NCBI GenBank assembly: GCA_043780835.1
Contig: JAYWCB010000010.1
Span: forward strand, 2,845-66,844
Length of the DNA stretch: 64,000 nt
Direction of reading: 5' to 3'
Source of the DNA: Minisyncoccota bacterium
Lineage (GTDB): Bacteria > Patescibacteriota > Minisyncoccia > Phycocordibacterales > UBA2100
Shown here piece by piece: positions 13,540-64,000 of the stretch (the stretch's first letter is position 1; each line of letters opens with the position of its first letter). The translations under genes were made by a program, and so were the position numbers. The notes beneath the pieces are model-generated. The model saw nothing but the letters and a program-made list of their open reading frames with translations. It had not been told where the DNA came from and searched no databases.

Positions 13540-13638
13540 GACATACAGTATGCCAATCTATGAGCAATTCATCAACATATCCACATGTGTATACGTTATG
13601 TGCACAATACCTATTAGCGGTCCTATAGGATTGTTAAT

Positions 13639-14196
13639 ATGTCGAGTCAAATGGAGCAAAAACTTGTAAGAAAGTTGCGACGGACTAAAATGCAGGACGC
13701 TATACTCTCCTCACTCAAAATCGCCGGCATTTTAACCATCGCAATCGCCGCGCCAAATTTGGTGCAATTGTTAAAAAGACAGCTGACTAATCGCTCGATT
13801 CAAGGCGCATCTGAGCGACTTGCACAAAAAGGATTCATTGCATGGCAACATATAGACGGAAAAAGATTTATGCAGCTGACCGCCAAAGGAGAAGCGTATA
13901 TAAACGCAAGAACCATGTCGATCGCAAAGCCAAAACACTGGGACGGTAAATGGCGAATCGTCATATTTGATATTGCTGAGCCTCGAAGGAGGCACCGTAC
14001 ACAGTTGCGTAGAACGCTCATCGCGCTTGGTTTCAAACGGCTCCAAGATAGCGTGTGGGTATTCCCCTATGACTGCGAGGAGCTCATTACCCTTTTGAAA
14101 ACGGAGTATGGCCTTGGCAAAGAAGTTTTGTATATCATCGCGGATTCAATCGAGAGAGATTGGGAAATTATAGATCATTTTAAACTGAGGGATTAA
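13639..14196 (+). CDS. PaaX-like winged-helix regulator
   Basis: WDGKWRIVIFDIAEPRRRHRTQLRRTLIALGFKRLQDSVWVFP resembles the PaaX C-terminal signature. Confidence 0.45.
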   Translation: MSSQMEQKLVRKLRRTKMQDAILSSLKIAGILTIAIAAPNLVQLLKRQLTNRSIQGASERLAQKGFIAWQHIDGKRFMQLTAKGEAYINARTMSIAKPKHWDGKWRIVIFDIAEPRRRHRTQLRRTLIALGFKRLQDSVWVFPYDCEELITLLKTEYGLGKEVLYIIADSIERDWEIIDHFKLRD

Positions 14197-14295
14197 TTGC
14201 AGATTAGTGGTCCTATAGGAGCGTTAATGTGTACTTATGAATTGAAAGGTGTATGGAGACTGAGAGGGCTGTGAAGAAAAAGGACGGTCCTTTTT

Positions 14296-22703: not shown

Positions 22704-22733
22704 CGATGCCTCTACACACGAAATGACCTTGTT

Positions 22734-23003
22734 ATGTTCTACGTGTATGTACTCCAAAGTATGAAAGACAACAAGCTGTACACAGGCTACACAAACGATC
22801 TCAGGCGAAGATTCTCCGAACATAACCTCGGTCAGAACAAATCAACAAAACCTCGTGTCCCTCTCAAGTTACTGTATTACGAAGCATATTCATCGCAGAC
22901 TGATGCGCAGAATAGAGAACGCAACATAAAACATTCCGCAGGTGCCAGAACCGCCCTTAAACGTCGATTACCAGACAGTCTGCGATTAGGTCATTTCGTG
23001 TGA
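22734..23003 (+). CDS. GIY-YIG nuclease domain protein (stand-alone, 89 aa)
   Basis: YVYVLQS…KLYTGYTNDLRRRFSEHN matches GIY-YIG. Confidence 0.65.
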   Translation: MFYVYVLQSMKDNKLYTGYTNDLRRRFSEHNLGQNKSTKPRVPLKLLYYEAYSSQTDAQNRERNIKHSAGARTALKRRLPDSLRLGHFV

Positions 23004-27791: not shown

Positions 27792-27836
27792 ATCTTTAGT
27801 CGGCGTACTGTAGCACATTTAAGCCGTGAATCGCAA

Positions 27837-27937
27837 GGCCCGTTAGAGAACGCCCCGCCACGGGCGCGGCTTCAGCCGTTTTGAGGGCGACTTTTCTCTA
27901 ACGGGCCAAGTCCCGGCCCGTAGCATGGGCTTTTTTT
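27837..27937 (-). promoter_or_regulatory. structured rpsF leader: 14-bp inverted repeat (GGCCCGTTAGAGAA and its complement), followed by hairpin gcccgtagcatgggc plus T7
   Basis: Direct reading. The core CCCGTTAGA(G)AA is shared with the elements at 34061/34154 and 63124/63213. Confidence 0.5.
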
Positions 27938-32998: not shown

Positions 32999-34090
32999 CT
33001 ATGCCGCATTACGTACATGTTCCGCAAGCCTGCCCGATTCGATGTCTTTTACAAACTCCTGCAGCGTCGCCGCGACGGGAACAGATAATATGACCCCCAA
33101 AAACCCGGCGAGTTCCGCACCGATAATCAGCGCGAGGATGACAAGCAAAGGCGGCACACCCACAACGCGCGTCACCACCTGCGGATAAATGAGGTGATTT
33201 TCGAATTGTTGAATGACGGTGTAGATAATGACAACAGTGATACCAAGCACCGGCCCGCCGGCAACGAAGCCGATCATGACGGCCGGTGTTGCCGCCAATA
33301 TAGGCCCGAACACCGGGATTAATTCAAACAGCGCCGTGATAACAGCGAGAATGAGCGCGTGCGGTACCTGGAAAATAAGAAGCGAAAGGTACACGAGCAC
33401 ACCAATGAGAACTCCTAAAATAATCTGTCCCTGCATCCACAGACCGATTTTGTGCTGCGAGCGTTTCCAGAGATCTTGTACATACGCGCGATGTGAGCGC
33501 GGAGACACAATGCGAATGAAATCATCCACCCCGGTTTCGACGACCGCAAAGTAAAACGAAAAGACGATAATCAATACAAATGAGAACAGTCCGCCAAAAA
33601 TCTTTGTCGCGGCAGAAAATGTGTTACTCGCGGATCCAAAATCAAACAAACTACGGAAACTCGCGATCACGTCACTTCCGGATAAATTAGCGGACGAGGG
33701 TAATCCGAGAATGCTTGAGTACGCCGTATATGCGCTCGACTGCGTAAATGTATCAAGATACGACGGTAACGAAGCGGCGAACGTACCAAAATCTTTCAGA
33801 AGCGACGGAAAGAAAAAGTAGAATACCAAGAAAAACAGAGTGAACATAAACAAATACAAAATAAGCACCGCAACAACCCGCGGCAACGCATGCCTCGTCA
33901 TTGCACGCACGCCCGGTTCTACCGCAGACGATATGACGACTGCGGTGAGCACGATAAGCACGACGTCGCGCAAAATAAAAAGTATCCACGCAAGCACGAG
34001 GAAGACGATAGTCTTGAGGAGTGTTCCCGATGTAATCGTTACGTGGAGATTCCGCTCGTCCATCCCGTTAGAAATAGGACGCGGACACAT
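32999..34090 (-). CDS. AI-2E family transporter (PerM/YhhT-like)
   Basis: 8-TM profile and conserved AI-2E segments. N-terminus MCPRPISNGMDE is encoded by the repeated regulatory motif. Confidence 0.7.
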   Translation of the reverse strand: MCPRPISNGMDERNLHVTITSGTLLKTIVFLVLAWILFILRDVVLIVLTAVVISSAVEPGVRAMTRHALPRVVAVLILYLFMFTLFFLVFYFFFPSLLKDFGTFAASLPSYLDTFTQSSAYTAYSSILGLPSSANLSGSDVIASFRSLFDFGSASNTFSAATKIFGGLFSFVLIIVFSFYFAVVETGVDDFIRIVSPRSHRAYVQDLWKRSQHKIGLWMQGQIILGVLIGVLVYLSLLIFQVPHALILAVITALFELIPVFGPILAATPAVMIGFVAGGPVLGITVVIIYTVIQQFENHLIYPQVVTRVVGVPPLLVILALIIGAELAGFLGVILSVPVAATLQEFVKDIESGRLAEHVRNAA

Positions 34091-34186
34091 TGGATGTGTC
34101 GCACCCTACTCGACTACTACTCATAAACTCGACGCTTCTGCCATGCTCTGATTCCGCGCGTCCGCGATTTCTAACGGGATCCATGC
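34061..34186 (-). promoter_or_regulatory. inverted-repeat RNA stem enclosing the start codon: arm L 34061-34086 (in CDS), arm R 34154-34186 (5' UTR); core ATCCCGTTAGAAAT
   Basis: Direct reading. Arm R is about 90% identical to 63213-63241. Confidence 0.5.
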
Positions 34187-34196
34187 CCGCATCCTA

Positions 34197-35315
34197 TCAC
34201 GGAGCGTTCCTTTGAGTGATGGTTTGATCAAGTATTTTCCTAACTAAATGATGGGTGTTCCCATGCCGTAGAAGCCCCAGATATGATTGCATTATCGGAT
34301 CATTTTCTGCCACCTCGCGTGTATTTTTGCACGCACGACACTTAGTAGACCTTCGAAGCACGCGATGACGCGGAAAGTGCACCCATCCGAGAAAGTCCAC
34401 GCCGCTCGCGAATGTTTTTATAAATACCTTATCTGGATGCAACTCGAGCTTGAGTTTTTCATGCAGAAATGCCGCGATCTTCGGCAACAATGAGTCAAGG
34501 CGCGGCCTTGATGCAGAGAGTATTACGAAGTCGTCCGCGTAGCGAATGTAGTGCTTCGCTTTGAGCGTCTGCTTTACGTATTGATCGAACTCGTTCATGT
34601 AGATATTCACAAGCAGCTGACTCGTCAGATTACCGAGCGGCAATCCCTTTAAAGTGGAAGGTTTAGCCTTCCACTTTACTCCTCTGCTCATATCCCTATC
34701 TTCGCGCGGTCGCGTAGAAATAGGGATACCGGATCGGAAACTATGGACGACGTTTTTGATGAGCTCAACAGTGCGGATGTCGGGAATATACCCACCTACG
34801 ATGTCGAGAAGGATTGATTGATCGATGCTTGCGAAGAACTTTCGGATATCGCACTTGAGCACCCAACAGGTGCGGGTGTGATTTTTTGATACTTTGTATG
34901 CGAATTCCCGGAAACGATTCATCGCTTTGTGGGTTCCCTTTCCTTTTCTGCATGAATACGAATCTGCGATAAACGTGCGGTCGAAGAACGGGTAGAGTTT
35001 GCGATACAGCGCGTGGTGTAACAGTCGATCGCGTACGCTCGCCTTGTGAATGTCGCGGGGTTTGGGGTCGGATATCTTGAACGCCTCGTATCCGTCGTGA
35101 CGATACGTACCGTTCCTTAGATCGGTATGCAAGGCAAGAACATTACGCATTAGACTAGCTCGAAATTCCTGCACATCCTGCTTCTTTTGTTTTCCCCGCA
35201 CAAATTCTCTCCACGCCGCAAGAAGATTTACAACCGAAATGATATCCTCGTATGAGTGGCTGAAAACTCTCCGAGACTGGACCCCCCCCAACGGCTTTTG
35301 CCTGTTATTGAGCAT
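34197..35315 (-). CDS. DGR reverse transcriptase
   Basis: NLLAAWREFVRGKQKK…LRNGTYRHDGYEAFKISDPKPRDIH…VRDRLLHHAL (bRT-like N-terminus). Motif 4 LPLGNLTSQLLVNIYM (the SQ variant typical of DGR RTs). RYADDFVIL active site. Confidence 0.8.
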   Translation of the reverse strand: MLNNRQKPLGGVQSRRVFSHSYEDIISVVNLLAAWREFVRGKQKKQDVQEFRASLMRNVLALHTDLRNGTYRHDGYEAFKISDPKPRDIHKASVRDRLLHHALYRKLYPFFDRTFIADSYSCRKGKGTHKAMNRFREFAYKVSKNHTRTCWVLKCDIRKFFASIDQSILLDIVGGYIPDIRTVELIKNVVHSFRSGIPISTRPREDRDMSRGVKWKAKPSTLKGLPLGNLTSQLLVNIYMNEFDQYVKQTLKAKHYIRYADDFVILSASRPRLDSLLPKIAAFLHEKLKLELHPDKVFIKTFASGVDFLGWVHFPRHRVLRRSTKCRACKNTREVAENDPIMQSYLGLLRHGNTHHLVRKILDQTITQRNAP

Positions 35316-35678
35316 GCAAAGAAATTGTACATCCTCTGGCTTCCCATACGGCGCAACATGGCACGGGATGAGCGTTTTGGAATCGGCAAACGAATCGACG
35401 AACTTTTGTTATCTGCACTCGAACAATTGCGAGAGGCTTCGTATAGCTCGGGAAGCGGAAAAATAACACTCCTCGGCAAAATTTTGCAAAGCACCGATCT
35501 GCTTCGCTTTTTCTTCCAATTGGCGTGGGAAGGTCAAATTCTCCAACAAAGACAGTACATTCTCCTTGCGGAAAATACGGAGAGTCTCGGCAAAATGGTC
35601 GGCGGATGGCGCAAAGGATTGATTGCAAAAACCCCGCCCCAAGAAAATAAATCCGTGAGCGGGGAAAGAAAAGAGTAG
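35256..35678 (+). CDS. avd: Avd-like accessory variability determinant (four-helix-bundle protein)
   Basis: Helical ORF. LWLPIRRNMARDERFGIGKRIDELLLSALEQL is similar to the Bordetella phage BPP-1 Avd segment YLYPIAQSIPRKHGVAREMFLKCLLGQVEL. Lies on the strand opposite the RT and overlaps its annotated start by about 60 nt; start may instead be at Met35 (35358). Confidence 0.5.
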   Translation: MAENSPRLDPPQRLLPVIEHAKKLYILWLPIRRNMARDERFGIGKRIDELLLSALEQLREASYSSGSGKITLLGKILQSTDLLRFFFQLAWEGQILQQRQYILLAENTESLGKMVGGWRKGLIAKTPPQENKSVSGERKE

Positions 35679-35788
35679 CGAGACAGGACCTGGTTGCCGT
35701 CGTTCCACCTATTCGGGTTCTCGATCGAGTTGGCCTCTACATTCCAGCCACCGTTGTCGGAGTTCCAGTTGGCGTTGACCGCCCAGAG
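35677..35788 (-). repeat. DGR template repeat (TR), 112 bp, AAC/AAT-rich in sense orientation
   Basis: Identical to the VR except at 16 positions, all A in the minus-strand (sense) TR. Encodes …NANWNSDNGGWNVEANSIENPNRWNDGNQVLSR. Confidence 0.85.
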
Positions 35789-36035
35789 CCATATTGTGCA
35801 TTGAGTCACCTATGCCACTGCCCTTTGACTACTCTCAGAGCTGTATCGTATGTGGGACCTCAAAGTCCTCCAACGCAATGCACCGATTCTTAATCTTTTT
35901 TAAGAGCTTCTGCTCGCGCGCTTCCAAGAGATCTCTCCGTTGAAATTCTGACGATGCAAATAACCCGAGGCGCTGCGTGAAATTTGTTACACGTCACACC
36001 AGAGCACTCCTCGCTATGTAGTATACAAAAGAAAA

Positions 36036-36071
36036 GACCCTCTGAAACTGTTTTTAAAGTTTCAGAGGGTC
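36036..36071 (-). terminator. perfect 14-bp hairpin (gaccctctgaaact / agtttcagagggtc) about 50 nt downstream of the VR; terminator and/or DGR cruciform element
   Basis: Direct reading. Confidence 0.55.
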
Positions 36072-36122
36072 AGAAAAGCTGAGGGTTTAAAGTAAAACCC
36101 CAAAGAGAACAAGTGAGAAGAA

Positions 36123-36722
36123 TCAGCGAGACAGGACCTGGTCGCCGCCGCCCCACCTACGCGGGTCCTCGATCGAGTTGGCCTCTACACCCCAGCCACC
36201 GCCGTCGGAGCCCCAGCGGGCGTAGACCGCCCAGAGGATGCCGTTCACGTCGCGGATATACACAATGTTGGCATACCCGCTGGTGAGGAGCGGTCCGACT
36301 TCGCCCTTGCCCTGCTTCGAGAGCAGCGCAAAGAACTGACCGAGCTTGATCTCGCACTTTTCGGCGAGTACCGTAATGATCGGAGTATCGAGCGAGTGTT
36401 CCAGGAGCTTGTGCGCCTTGATGTCGGAGGCATCGCAGATACCCTCAAAAAGTCCGAGGAAGTTCGTGCTGAAGTTGTGGCCGATCCATGCAATACGCAC
36501 CGCAGCCTTCTTTGTGTCGACCGTGAAGTAGTCGGCAGCCTTAAAACCTTCGACGCCGGCGACCGAGGTGGTCGTCACGAGTTCGAGGAGCTTCTTGGGC
36601 TCGCTCGGCTTAGCGACAACGACATGTAGATCTCCGGCGAGTAGACGCATGAATGCGTCTTCGCCCCCGATCTTGTTGATGCCCGCCTCAATCTGGCCAA
36701 GGGTGAGATTGCCATATTTCAT
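36123..36722 (-). CDS. DGR variable (target) protein, 199 aa, no signal peptide
   Basis: C-terminal 37 aa encoded by the VR (…WAVYARWGSDGGGWGVEANSIEDPRRWGGGDQVLSR*). Confidence 0.75.
   Translation of the reverse strand: MKYGNLTLGQIEAGINKIGGEDAFMRLLAGDLHVVVAKPSEPKKLLELVTTTSVAGVEGFKAADYFTVDTKKAAVRIAWIGHNFSTNFLGLFEGICDASDIKAHKLLEHSLDTPIITVLAEKCEIKLGQFFALLSKQGKGEVGPLLTSGYANIVYIRDVNGILWAVYARWGSDGGGWGVEANSIEDPRRWGGGDQVLSR
36125..36236 (-). repeat. DGR variable region (VR)
   Basis: 112-bp copy of the TR with all 16 differences at TR adenines. Confidence 0.85.
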
Positions 36723-57149: not shown

Positions 57150-57547
57150 CTGGGCGGCTATAGATCAATGGGTGAAGCGCCCGCGTTTTTGAATTATTTT
57201 GGGCAGTAGGTCACGGTCAAGCGCTCGATCCTGCGCCGTCGCGCAGAATCTCCGCCTGACCACGCGCGGGCATCCCCGCGTACTCGCGGGGCCCCAGCCC
57301 TTGCTTTCGATTCCCTGTAGCCGTCCACAAAATAAAATTCATCAACGCTTCGCGTTTTTGAATTATTTTGGGCGGCTACAAGTGAATAGGCCAAGCGCTC
57401 GAAATGTTGCCGTCGCAACATTTCTCCGCTCGGCCCTGCTCACGTCGTCCCGCCTGCTGGCGGGTCCCGCGACGCTCGCTTTCGATTCCCGATAGCCTGC
57501 ACCAAAAAGCATATTACAGAAACGCTGCGCGTTTCTTCCATTGTTTT
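57150..57547. repeat. tandem array (about 2.5 units of about 175 bp) next to tRNA-His. Each unit carries a tRNA-His 3'-end copy (tgggcggctacag), hairpins H1 (GC-CGTC-GC) and H2, and an inverted copy of the tRNA T-arm/acceptor (ttcgattccctgtagccg)
   Basis: Direct reading. Direct repeats at 57152, 57201 (degenerate), 57369 and 57548. Covarying hairpin stems between units. Confidence 0.7.
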
Positions 57548-57622
57548 TGGGCGGCTACAGGGAATCGAACCCTGATCGAGAGCTCCACAAGCTCCAGTGT
57601 TAACCGTTACACCATAGTCGCC
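57548..57622 (-). tRNA. tRNA-His (anticodon GUG) with encoded G-1
   Basis: Cloverleaf folds with D-stem GTGT/ACAC, anticodon arm GGAGC-TTGTGGA-GCTCT, T-arm CAGGG-TTCGATT-CCCTG. Confidence 0.8.
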
Positions 57623-62775: not shown

Positions 62776-63183
62776 TTACTTCAATGTTGTTCCGCGTGGG
62801 ACTTCGCGCTCAGGTGAGAGCAGCGCAACACCAGAGTCATCAGATGCTGCAATAAGCATTCCCTGACTTTCAACACCACGAAGTGTTCGTGGTGCAAGAT
62901 TCACGATATAGGGGAGTTGTTTTCCGACGAGATCCTCGGGGGTTTTCCATTCTGCGATACCCGAAACAATAATGCGTGTTCCATAGTCACCGAAATCAAT
63001 GGTGCACTTAAGTAATTTATCGGCGTTTTCAATTTTCTCCACAGCGAGGACGGTGCCGAGGCGAATATCAAGCTTTGCAAAATCTTCGTACGAAATCTCC
63101 GGCTTATTCTGAGGAGTTTCTTCCACCCCGGTAGAAACAGGTCGCGGAAGGTTCGTTTCGGGACTATTGGAATCTAATGTCAT
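62776..63183 (-). CDS. stand-alone tRNA-binding domain protein (CsaA/Trbp111/EMAP-II-like OB fold)
   Basis: …KLDIRLGTVLAVEKIENADKLLKCTIDFGDYGTRIIVSGIAEW…QGMLIAA…. Confidence 0.7.
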   Translation of the reverse strand: MTLDSNSPETNLPRPVSTGVEETPQNKPEISYEDFAKLDIRLGTVLAVEKIENADKLLKCTIDFGDYGTRIIVSGIAEWKTPEDLVGKQLPYIVNLAPRTLRGVESQGMLIAASDDSGVALLSPEREVPRGTTLK

Positions 63184-63241
63184 AAAAAAGCATTTAAAAA
63201 AATATGATTGTTGCGACCGCGGTTTCTAACGGGGTCCATGC
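63124..63241 (-). promoter_or_regulatory. inverted-repeat RNA stem enclosing the start codon: arm L 63124-63147 (in CDS), arm R 63213-63241 (5' UTR); core CCCCG(T/G)TAGAAAC
   Basis: Direct reading. Arm R is about 90% identical to 34154-34186. Confidence 0.5.
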
Positions 63242-63637: not shown

Positions 63638-64000
63638 TCAGAATTCCCGCGTTTCGTTGTTGTGGAGTGCTTTGAATTCAATACCATGAGGCGCGATGAT
63701 AGATTGGATGATCTGAGGTATAAATCCGGTCAATTGAGGATTAAGAATCATATCGTGCACGGGGAAAGCGGTCTTTGGTTTTAGTTCAATCGCATAATCA
63801 ATCGCTTCGGATAAGCGCATCCACGGACCCGCAACGGGTAGCGCAAGTATTTCAACAGCGACATTCGGTTTGATAAACGAATCTCCCGGGTACCACAGTC
63901 GATTGGCGACAAGGAAGCCCGTGTTTTGAATTCGTGGAATCGTGGAATGTATTTCTTCGTGTATACCCGAAACGCCGGAAATCAGCACTCCCCCAATTTC
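63638..64000 (-). CDS. MBL-fold metallo-hydrolase, C-terminal part (N-terminus beyond window end)
   Basis: …YPGDSF…VEILALPVAGPW…AFPVHD… Truncated by the window. Confidence 0.4.
   Translation of the reverse strand, partial: EIGGVLISGVSGIHEEIHSTIPRIQNTGFLVANRLWYPGDSFIKPNVAVEILALPVAGPWMRLSEAIDYAIELKPKTAFPVHDMILNPQLTGFIPQIIQSIIAPHGIEFKALHNNETREF

Follow-up and report, generated by a model that had tools for sequence, protein, structure and literature searches.

Why should one short sequence recur, in inverted pairs, at the 5' ends of unrelated genes in a bacterial genome? The question is raised by a stretch of 64,000 nucleotides from a Minisyncoccota bacterium (GenBank assembly GCA_043780835.1, contig JAYWCB010000010.1, positions 2,845 to 66,844 of the forward strand), here called the window, in which such pairs lie at the starts of the genes for an AI-2E family transporter and a stand-alone tRNA-binding protein and, a third time, near rpsF. 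A preliminary description of the window interpreted them as a shared cis-regulatory RNA structure or a protein-binding site. From comparative sequence analysis we argue instead, with a probability of roughly 0.8, that these hairpins, referred to below by their arm sequence CCCGTTAGA, are insertion-derived, non-autonomous copies of a mini-element that encodes a GIY-YIG nuclease, and that they resemble miniature inverted-repeat transposable elements (MITEs).

Inverted repeats at the starts of unrelated genes

The core CCCGTTAGARA and its complement form three close inverted pairs in the window (27839-27905, 34064-34178 and 63127-63233), as opposed to none in 100 shuffled sequences, and core matches with at most one mismatch numbered seven against 1.6 expected. 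No further pair was found in the window when up to two mismatches were allowed in each arm. The 29-nt arms at 34158-34186 (AI-2E side) and 63213-63241 (tRNA-binding side) are 90% identical, confirming that the recurrent motif of about 30 nt noted earlier at these two gene starts is real, and the sequence between the arms of the third pair is unrelated to that of the other two. Fold prediction, which the preliminary description had proposed, gave long hairpins for all three pairs (z-scores from -2.2 to -4.0), and both strands folded equally well. With regard to known RNAs, a search of the window against Rfam at gathering thresholds returned only four tRNAs, and relaxing the limit to E 10 in the surroundings of copy 1 added nothing but one chance match. 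A literature search on the core sequence gave nothing relevant.

The coverage of the source genome amounted to 71 kb, that is, the window plus a 7-kb extension by locus L131 (100% identity in the overlap), and an exact-sequence look-up reached only an 11-kb Logan contig of this genome. The 71 kb contain four copies, which are listed below with their flanking duplications and host genes; L-numbers denote fetched genomic loci that were compared with the window.

34063..34179, minus strand: copy 1, a MITE-like element of 117 bp, recognised by its inverted pair, its fold and empty sites in six relatives
34180..34183, minus strand: TGGA duplication of copy 1, promoter side; with A34184 it gives the duplicated ATG (34184-34182)
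34059..34062, minus strand: TGGA duplication of copy 1, gene side; the last base of the element, A34063, rebuilds the ATG (34063-34061)
34191..34199, minus strand: putative extended -10 box TGATAGGAT, 6 nt before the ancestral ATG and kept in six relatives
32999..34063, minus strand: AI-2E family transporter (PF01594), 354 aa from the ancestral start; the best 120 homologues are about 354 aa long
63126..63234, minus strand: copy 2, 109 bp, terminal pair C...G, right arm with one mismatch; site empty in L129 and L130, filled in L212-L215
63235..63238, minus strand: TGGA duplication of copy 2, upstream, inside ATGGAC (ATG 63239-63237)
63122..63125, minus strand: TGGA duplication of copy 2, downstream; the terminal G of the element (63126) turns the host start into GTG
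62776..63126, minus strand: stand-alone tRNA-binding-domain protein (PF01588), 116 aa from the ancestral start
27838..27906, no strand assigned: copy 3, 69 bp, of another short subfamily (GAGAAAAGYCGCCC...; also at L010, L027 and L113), terminal pair G...C, directly upstream of the putative rpsF -35 box
27834..27837, plus strand: CAAG duplication of copy 3, left; on the gene strand, relatives have CTTG once, within TTCTTGCCTC
27907..27910, plus strand: CAAG duplication of copy 3, right, from the window sequence and relatives
L131 4108-4173: fourth copy, of a 66-bp subfamily (also in L097 and L120), about 2.9 kb past window position 64000

The terminal inverted repeats of copy 1 are 13 bp long (T-CCCGTTAGAAAT / ATTTCTAACGGG-A) and enclose an inner stem, CGCGGAC/GTCCGCG; the side carrying CCTAT, which is specific to the right end, faces the AI-2E gene. 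Copy 2 has the same orientation relative to its host gene. The fourth copy sits exactly on the ATGA stop/start overlap of a flavokinase and an EamA gene and is flanked by a TGAA duplication.

Empty sites in close relatives

AI-2E orthologues in Candidatus Kaiserbacteria relatives are 79-90% identical to the protein from the window and are all called at 354 aa. In six of these relatives (L121-124, L216 and L217) the site of copy 1 is without an element: the upstream aminoacyl-tRNA synthetase gene (GlyRS-like) lies about 30 nt from the AI-2E ATG, and the spacer ends in ...CGTG[A/C]TAGGATGCGGGC, directly followed by ATGGA[A/C/T]. The relatives have GC-ATGGAC-GA once, where the window has, after the same spacer, ATGGA-T[CCCG...CGGG]A-TGGAC-GAG. 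The shared spacer and the duplicated TGGA therefore indicate a 117-bp insertion, the terminal A of which rebuilt the ATG.

The other sites give the same picture. At the tRNA-binding gene, L130 has ATGGAAGAA once, where the window has ATGGA-C[element]G-TGGAAGAA, and L129 is likewise empty. The orthologous site is filled in one further lineage only (L212-L215), in which the arms have been kept and the interior has diverged. At the site of the fourth copy, L130 has an uninterrupted flavokinase/EamA overlap, and at the rpsF site relatives have a single CTTG in place of the CAAG/CTTG duplication. Copy 1, with its duplication intact, is missing even from relatives whose AI-2E protein is 88-90% identical; such lineage-specific insertions with intact duplications indicate recent mobility. 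On these comparisons of sequence, mobility of the elements is well supported.

The empty sites also revise how the gene starts were described earlier. The partner arms had been placed inside the two coding regions. However, the six AI-2E orthologues begin at the ATG that abuts the arm (34063), and most orthologues of the tRNA-binding protein begin MEE... or MDE..., corresponding to the GTG at 63126, which also abuts the arm. The peptide PRP[IV]S[NT]G, said to be shared by the two proteins, is indeed present in the longest open reading frames (ORFs), but it is just the right arm read in one frame; for AI-2E it is an artefact of ORF extension, whereas for the tRNA-binding gene an extended protein is possible (see below). 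The rpsF copy, described as lying entirely within the 5' untranslated region, appears from comparison with orthologues to be directly upstream of the putative -35 box and is not demonstrably in the leader. It should be underlined that a simple sigma-70 promoter scan made no call at the AI-2E and rpsF sites, and that these promoters rest on conservation among orthologues.

At the AI-2E gene, a conserved TG[A/C]TAGGAT box ends 6 nt before the ATG in the window (34184-34199) and in L121-L124, L216 and L217; the remainder of the 30-nt spacer varies among the relatives. Judged by this promoter position, which is of the leaderless type, the gene appears to be leaderless.

Structure of the unit and its distribution

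A scan of GTDB genomes with the pair pattern yielded at least 120 loci, and all counts of short copies given here are among the matches listed. The hosts of these matches belong to many groups of Patescibacteria, to Omnitrophota, Planctomycetota, Desulfobacterota and others; many copies lie at gene 5' ends and many on start codons. In viral contigs the pattern had just three matches among 2.9 million, and phages are therefore not the main carriers. Only 8 of 127 short copies lie inside long open frames.

To define the ends of the unit, six bases on each side of the arms were compared in these 127 short elements from about 120 genomes. The first base outside CCCG was complementary between the two sides in 96%, positions 2-5 were direct repeats in 73-84%, and the central positions 3-4 were complementary in just 9-20%; the central dinucleotide was direct in 87 elements and inverted in 6. 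Since the base next to CCCG is complementary and positions 2-5 are direct, the unit runs from Y-CCCGTTAGA to TCTAACGGG-R and is flanked by a 4-bp target-site duplication. In the window, the units measure 69-117 bp and have 13-bp terminal inverted repeats of the form Y-CCCGTTAGA-R-A-N. The duplication was perfect in 81 of 130 elements, the commonest (reverse complements pooled) being TGAA (25), TAAA (21), TGGA (9), TTGA (9) and TGAG (8).

Moreover, the two arms of an element change together. Across 217 distinct elements, the variable arm positions 0, 10, 11 and 12 agreed between arms in 96, 98, 98 and 90%, compared with 48, 50, 85 and 40% when arms were taken from different elements, and rare arm variants (CCACG..CGTGG, GGCCG..CGGCC and TTAAAGA..TCTTTAA) were altered in both arms at once. 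Short copies often retain a subterminal segment of the right end, CCTRT, plus a hairpin. In 23 short copies a perfect local hairpin, YA-GG(stem)CC-GT, stands beside one arm and not the other, and at least 12 different stems with compensating changes occur among them; the hairpin side was turned toward the host gene in 11 cases and away from it in 2. A subfamily of 63-66 bp occurs at L097, L120 and L131 with different duplications.

In L026 (2943-3104 and 6122-6199) and L020 (2167-2258 and 4942-5033) the copies are tandem or inverted duplicates that share flanking sequence, and some copies therefore multiply by segmental duplication or recombination and not by new insertion. The 2.7-kb segment between the two inverted L020 copies was considered as an autonomous element and rejected, as it contains a lipoprotein-like ORF and the shared flanks point to a larger inverted duplication.

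A GIY-YIG nuclease gene between the same arms

At two loci the arms are about 275 bp apart and enclose an ORF of 86-89 codons with a GIY-YIG domain; such an ORF lies between CCCGTTAGA arms in L094, L005 and L126 (PF01541, E 5.7e-14). A protein search returned 1746 relatives, and the C-termini were compared in the best 120 of these 1746. Nearly all of the 120 end in ...GKRYLKNRLKRFLSLTG (RFLSLTG), where LSLTG is the translation of the right arm, CTATCTCTAACGGGG. At the other end, several gene calls begin M[SN]PVR[DE]xx-M, which corresponds to in-frame reading of the left arm from a flanking ATGAGT or ATGAAT.

Metagenomic loci were then fetched through the protein alone, 80 in number, and gave 82 gene copies (76 distinct). 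Both arms were exact in 74 of the 82, CCCGTTAGA at most 45 nt upstream of the ATG and TCTAACGGG as the last codons of the gene. Among the 76 distinct copies, the full-length unit measures 273-278 bp, and 54 encode a protein of exactly 86 aa. The stop codon T[GA]A starts at the second flanking base in 56 of the 76, which means that it is supplied by the target or its duplication and not by the element. The full-length element thus has three parts: the left arm of 13 bp, one gene of 86 codons that encodes a GIY-YIG protein with no other domain, and the right arm, also of 13 bp, which doubles as the last five codons (LSLTG) of this gene. A palindrome, GGAAGCGCTTCC, occurs twice in the full-length gene (codons RKRF and KRFL) and matches the bases of the hairpin in short copies, which suggests, on sequence grounds, that short copies arise by internal deletion between the two repeats.

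The putative catalytic positions Y3, Y5, Y16, R26, H30 and E50 were invariant in an alignment of 31 members. The AlphaFold model of the nuclease has a GIY-YIG fold (predicted local distance difference test, pLDDT, 93), and its nearest solved structures are the UPF0213 protein BH0048, then Slx1 and HIGLE, both structure-selective nucleases, then I-TevI and UvrC. As the arms of the hairpins are the ends of these nuclease gene units, we infer that the copies in the window are MITE-like derivatives of the mini-element.

The window itself holds a related unit with other arms.

22715..23002, plus strand: second GIY-YIG mini-element, with another arm family; gene 22734-23003, 89 aa

Its nuclease is 52% identical to that of the CCCGTTAGA-arm element, and its ends form a perfect 15-bp inverted repeat (CACACGAAATGACCT / AGGTCATTTCGTGTG) unrelated to the CCCGTTAGA arms; the genome therefore hosts at least two arm families. 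The unit sits between the stop codon of FtsK and the ATG of the following gene, where relatives have just 4-15 nt. No clear target duplication was visible at 22715-23002, and the window contains no gene-less copies of this arm family.

Insertion at start codons

In 47 of the 127 short copies (37%) the right arm is followed without a spacer by an ATG or GTG at the head of an open frame of 60 codons or more. The expected share is 2.5% under a crude null, in which all eligible 4-mers in the non-coding DNA and start-codon sites of the window were taken as equally likely. The opposite flank of the start-abutting copies repeats ATGNN, and the recognisable hosts are unrelated housekeeping genes (DnaA, TypA, L1, TopA, AtpD, LysRS, RuvC, ClpP and SMC). 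Full-length copies behave similarly, 21 of 76 (28%) abutting a co-oriented host start and one a divergent start; the flanking ATG was in frame with the nuclease ORF, and the frame stop-free, in 11 of 14 full-length copies. In the source genome, three of the four copies are on start codons. Other insertions strike ATGA overlaps inside operons. As to the signals that precede the duplicated ATG, 8 of the 47 short copies have an extended -10-like box (TGnTAnnnT) at 5-8 nt, and just 4 have a Shine-Dalgarno-like motif.

Possible consequences for host genes

The right arm together with the target reads TCTAACGGGATGA. One frame of this sequence has a TAA 4 nt before the host ATG, another a TGA overlapping the ATG, and the third is in frame with the host gene. 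Copy 1 contains an upstream ORF of 38 codons ending at the TAA, and copy 2 one of 19 codons with a TGA that overlaps an in-frame ATG within the element, from which the 135-aa gene call arises. This in-element ATG has also been kept in the L212 lineage, and an extended tRNA-binding protein is therefore possible. The L131 copy is in frame with EamA, the called protein having a 24-aa element-encoded N-terminus; here, too, an N-terminally extended protein is a possible product, as judged from the reading frame. Each start-codon copy in the genome would thus leave ribosomes a route from the ancestral initiation site.

In 15 of 42 distinct start-abutting copies, the frame that starts at the duplicated ATG meets no stop until 12 nt or less before the host ATG, compared with 7.1 +/- 2.2 for shuffled interiors; none of 500 shuffles reached 15. 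The excess is a modest hint, some of which may be a legacy of the nuclease ORF. The 47 start-abutting short copies showed no preference for a single frame. From these sequences we would propose only tentatively, with the balance on the side of doubt, that selection has favoured the hand-over of ribosomes, and any effect on translation of host genes may be a side effect of insertion or a secondary adaptation.

Comparison with known systems

The closest parallel in architecture is provided by the Ssn nucleases (Chenal et al. 2025, Nat Commun, PMC11893778). These GIY-YIG proteins have a single domain and about 94 aa; they bind single-stranded DNA (ssDNA) only and cut it beside NTS/SRM hairpin repeats. 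These repeats flank the ssn gene, occur in hundreds of dispersed copies that are rarely inside genes, and the NTS-ssnA-NTS arrangement was likened to insertion sequences (IS) by the authors (PMC11893778). Both systems have a single-domain GIY-YIG protein of about 90 aa (here 86 aa), a gene bracketed by inverted or hairpin repeats (here in 74 of 82 copies), many dispersed repeat copies that are almost always outside and beside genes, and a conserved single-stranded motif adjoining a hairpin with a variable stem. They differ in that the present element is a discrete unit with 13-bp terminal inverted repeats, a 4-bp duplication and empty sites, inserts at start codons, and carries an ORF whose last codons lie in the arm and whose stop codon is supplied by the target; its hosts are Patescibacteria, Omnitrophota, Planctomycetota and Desulfobacterota. 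Target duplication, empty sites, start-codon insertion and Patescibacteria are not reported in PMC11893778. The published SRM consensus, HGTCWYN(0-2)YYVSBRHN(0-5)WNVSBRGN(0-2)RNCYNB, matches an NTS test sequence but 0 of 137 elements. The nearest solved relatives of the nuclease here are UPF0213 proteins.

With bacterial MITEs (Correia in Neisseria, RUP, ERIC and the Rickettsia palindromic elements, RPEs) the short copies share a length of 60-150 bp, terminal inverted repeats, target duplication, high copy number, and hairpins that are co-transcribed with neighbours and occasionally read as protein; the L131 copy, for instance, is in frame with EamA as RPEs are with host genes. The copies described here are short non-coding units with a fixed duplication of 4 bp and empty sites, four of them in 71 kb of this genome, as is characteristic of MITEs. 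In contrast to MITEs, the full-length partner encodes a GIY-YIG nuclease and not a DDE transposase, and the start-codon bias and fixed orientation are unusual. IS200/IS605 and REP/RAYT (REPtron) elements likewise combine a small enzyme acting on ssDNA hairpins with amplified palindromes and an enzyme gene between its own repeats, but their transposases are of the HUH/Y1 type, form covalent intermediates and make no target duplication. The free-standing homing endonucleases I-TevI and Seg, like Slx1 and HIGLE, have the same fold and catalytic residues as the present nuclease; the genes of the homing enzymes are selfish too, and Slx1 and HIGLE cut branched or hairpin DNA. Homing enzymes, however, have extra DNA-binding domains, lack terminal repeats, act at one cognate site via homologous repair and do not spread to many unrelated sites with duplications.

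Proposed mechanism and objections to it

Insertion duplicates 4 bp, mostly TGAA, TAAA, TGGA, TTGA or TGAG, and is strongly biased to the TG-N-N of host start codons, with the element co-oriented with the gene and its terminal A or G rebuilding the host ATG or GTG. The nuclease would recognise arm plus hairpin, probably in ssDNA as Ssn enzymes do, and act with host repair or replication to move the element. At start codons, the initiation signals of the host would serve for translation of the nuclease, or of a small upstream ORF where the copy is short, and ribosomes could then reach the host ORF either by reading through in frame or by stop/start coupling (GGGATGA, or a TAA 4 nt upstream). The nuclease is the only candidate for the mobilising function, and we consider it slightly more probable than an even chance that it drives mobility itself.

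Several observations weigh against this interpretation. The 71 kb of the source genome contain no full-length CCCGTTAGA copy, and the GIY-YIG gene that is present in the window has different arms. The duplication is perfect in just 62% of short and 29% of full-length copies, and many full-length copies have unrelated flanks. GIY-YIG enzymes are hydrolytic and none is known to catalyse strand transfer; a hydrolytic nuclease leaves the origin of the 4-bp duplication unexplained. The SRM consensus, as mentioned, has no match among the elements. The start-codon bias could come from selection and not from targeting. Finally, the idea of translational coupling is drawn from sequence, and the distance between the duplicated starts or arms, modulo 3, is about equally spread over the three classes in the 47 short copies. 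The duplication could alternatively come from microhomology-mediated integration, in which a junction sequence of the element matches the target; this would also account for the duplication sequences being few and lineage-specific.

In its most far-reaching form, the proposal is that of a start-codon parasite of about 277 bp, the smallest self-contained bacterial mobile element, with an 86-aa (Ssn-like) GIY-YIG nuclease as its sole element-encoded mobility function, insertion at TGNN, host initiation that is borrowed, a stop codon derived from the target and hand-over of ribosomes at ATGA. We put this forward as a speculative model, the odds of which are somewhat unfavourable.

Alternative explanations

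The hairpins might be repeats domesticated by the host which, like NTS/SsnA in Neisseria, mark cuts in ssDNA and control the uptake or recombination of transforming DNA, and which are not transposons active at present. Besides the Ssn precedent (PMC11893778), this is favoured by the fact that Patescibacteria are thought to depend on DNA uptake and that copies are mostly outside genes, flanking them. Recent lineage-specific insertions, such as copy 1 compared with relatives whose AI-2E protein is 88-90% identical, argue against it, and we consider it improbable as the explanation of the repeats. It is, on the other hand, compatible with a mobile element, to which it would be an extra layer and not a replacement.

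Terminal inverted repeats and a duplication of fixed length are the hallmark of DDE transposition, and GIY-YIG nucleases cannot join DNA. The copies could thus be ordinary MITEs moved in trans by a classical DDE transposase, the GIY-YIG gene being a passenger or a homing-type hitch-hiker. Yet the fetched loci, about 1.2 Mb in all and at most 8 kb each, contained no transposase and no larger element bounded by these ends, and the nuclease ORF is built into the ends, as seen from its right-arm codons, its stop in the duplication and its constant unit length of 273-278 bp (both arms in 74 of 82 copies), which is unexpected for a passenger. We rate this possibility somewhat lower still than domestication.

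A regulatory RNA hairpin, or the operator of an RNA-binding protein, that sequesters the start regions of a regulon of unrelated genes would fit the location at gene 5' ends, the stable hairpins in which the start codon has its first two bases paired, the arms that co-vary and the upstream frame that is open more often than by chance. Conservation at orthologous genes, which the preliminary description had implied, is not borne out, however: the element is missing at all six AI-2E loci and at two tRNA-binding loci. The host genes, dozens in number, are unrelated and spread across several phyla, the fold is equally good on both strands and without an Rfam match at E up to 10, the ends are those of a nuclease gene, and the flanks are direct repeats. 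The co-variation of the arms is explained equally well by pairing at the DNA level or by recognition of the ends. Of the two functions suggested in the preliminary description, the protein-binding site fares better, the co-varying arms being probably a recognition site of the GIY-YIG nuclease; a regulatory RNA we regard as very unlikely.

Invertons (invertible promoter switches), integron attC-like sites and DNA uptake sequences can be dismissed: conserved inverted repeats with variable interiors upstream of genes, and a core, GTTAGA/TCTAAC, that resembles the attC core GTTRRRY/RYYYAAC, are outweighed by flanks that are direct and not inverted (87 against 6), an interior of just 41-101 bp between the cores, GTT/AAC halves in the order opposite to attC, no recombinase or integrase nearby, and empty sites that correspond to simple insertion.

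Other features of the window

A complete diversity-generating retroelement (DGR) lies directly upstream of copy 1, at 34197-36722 on the minus strand.

36123-36722, minus strand: DGR target gene, 199 aa; its 3' end holds the variable repeat (36125-36236)
35677-35788, minus strand: DGR template repeat; it differs from the variable repeat at A on the minus strand
34197-35315, minus strand: DGR reverse transcriptase, with an LGNLTSQ motif
35256-35678, opposite strand: bAvd-like ORF of the DGR

The entire cassette is missing from the six related genomes, in which the GlyRS-like gene is 30 nt from AI-2E. A link between copy 1 and the DGR was considered and rejected, as the other three copies and the hundreds elsewhere are not shown beside a DGR, and as a conserved, putative host promoter separates the reverse transcriptase gene from the element.

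Partial tRNA-like repeats are found at 57151-57621, beside tRNA-His (57549-57621). They comprise the direct pairs 57151-57183/57369-57401 and 57300-57332/57475-57507 and an inverted 3' part of the tRNA at 57306-57331, and may be remnants of integration. At 13608-14233, two 30-nt repeats with the palindrome GGTCCTATAGGA bracket an ORF of 185 aa (13639-14196); these could represent operators or the termini of a further small element.

Significance

In many uncultured lineages, elements of this kind occupy the start codons of essential genes (DnaA, TopA, AtpD and aminoacyl-tRNA synthetases), and they mislead gene callers into N-terminal extensions of the PRPISNG or MNPVRN type. If the host genes stay expressed despite a hairpin of 70-120 nt before the start, the insertions are natural experiments in Patescibacteria that would bear on leaderless initiation, re-initiation and coupling. 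The 13-bp arm plus hairpin, CCCGTTAGAGAYA-GG(stem-loop)CC-GT, is a compact candidate substrate for a new ssDNA-nuclease specificity, and a nuclease with such a specificity would be of biotechnological interest.

What Ssn nucleases do outside Neisseria is, to our knowledge, an open question, and that their repeats are IS-like has only been suspected. The duplications, the empty sites and a gene built into its own ends make the first sequence-level case that such units move. If the nuclease proves to be responsible, GIY-YIG nucleases would constitute a new class of prokaryotic transposition enzyme, and the orphan Ssn/SRM repeats would gain a mechanism of mobility.

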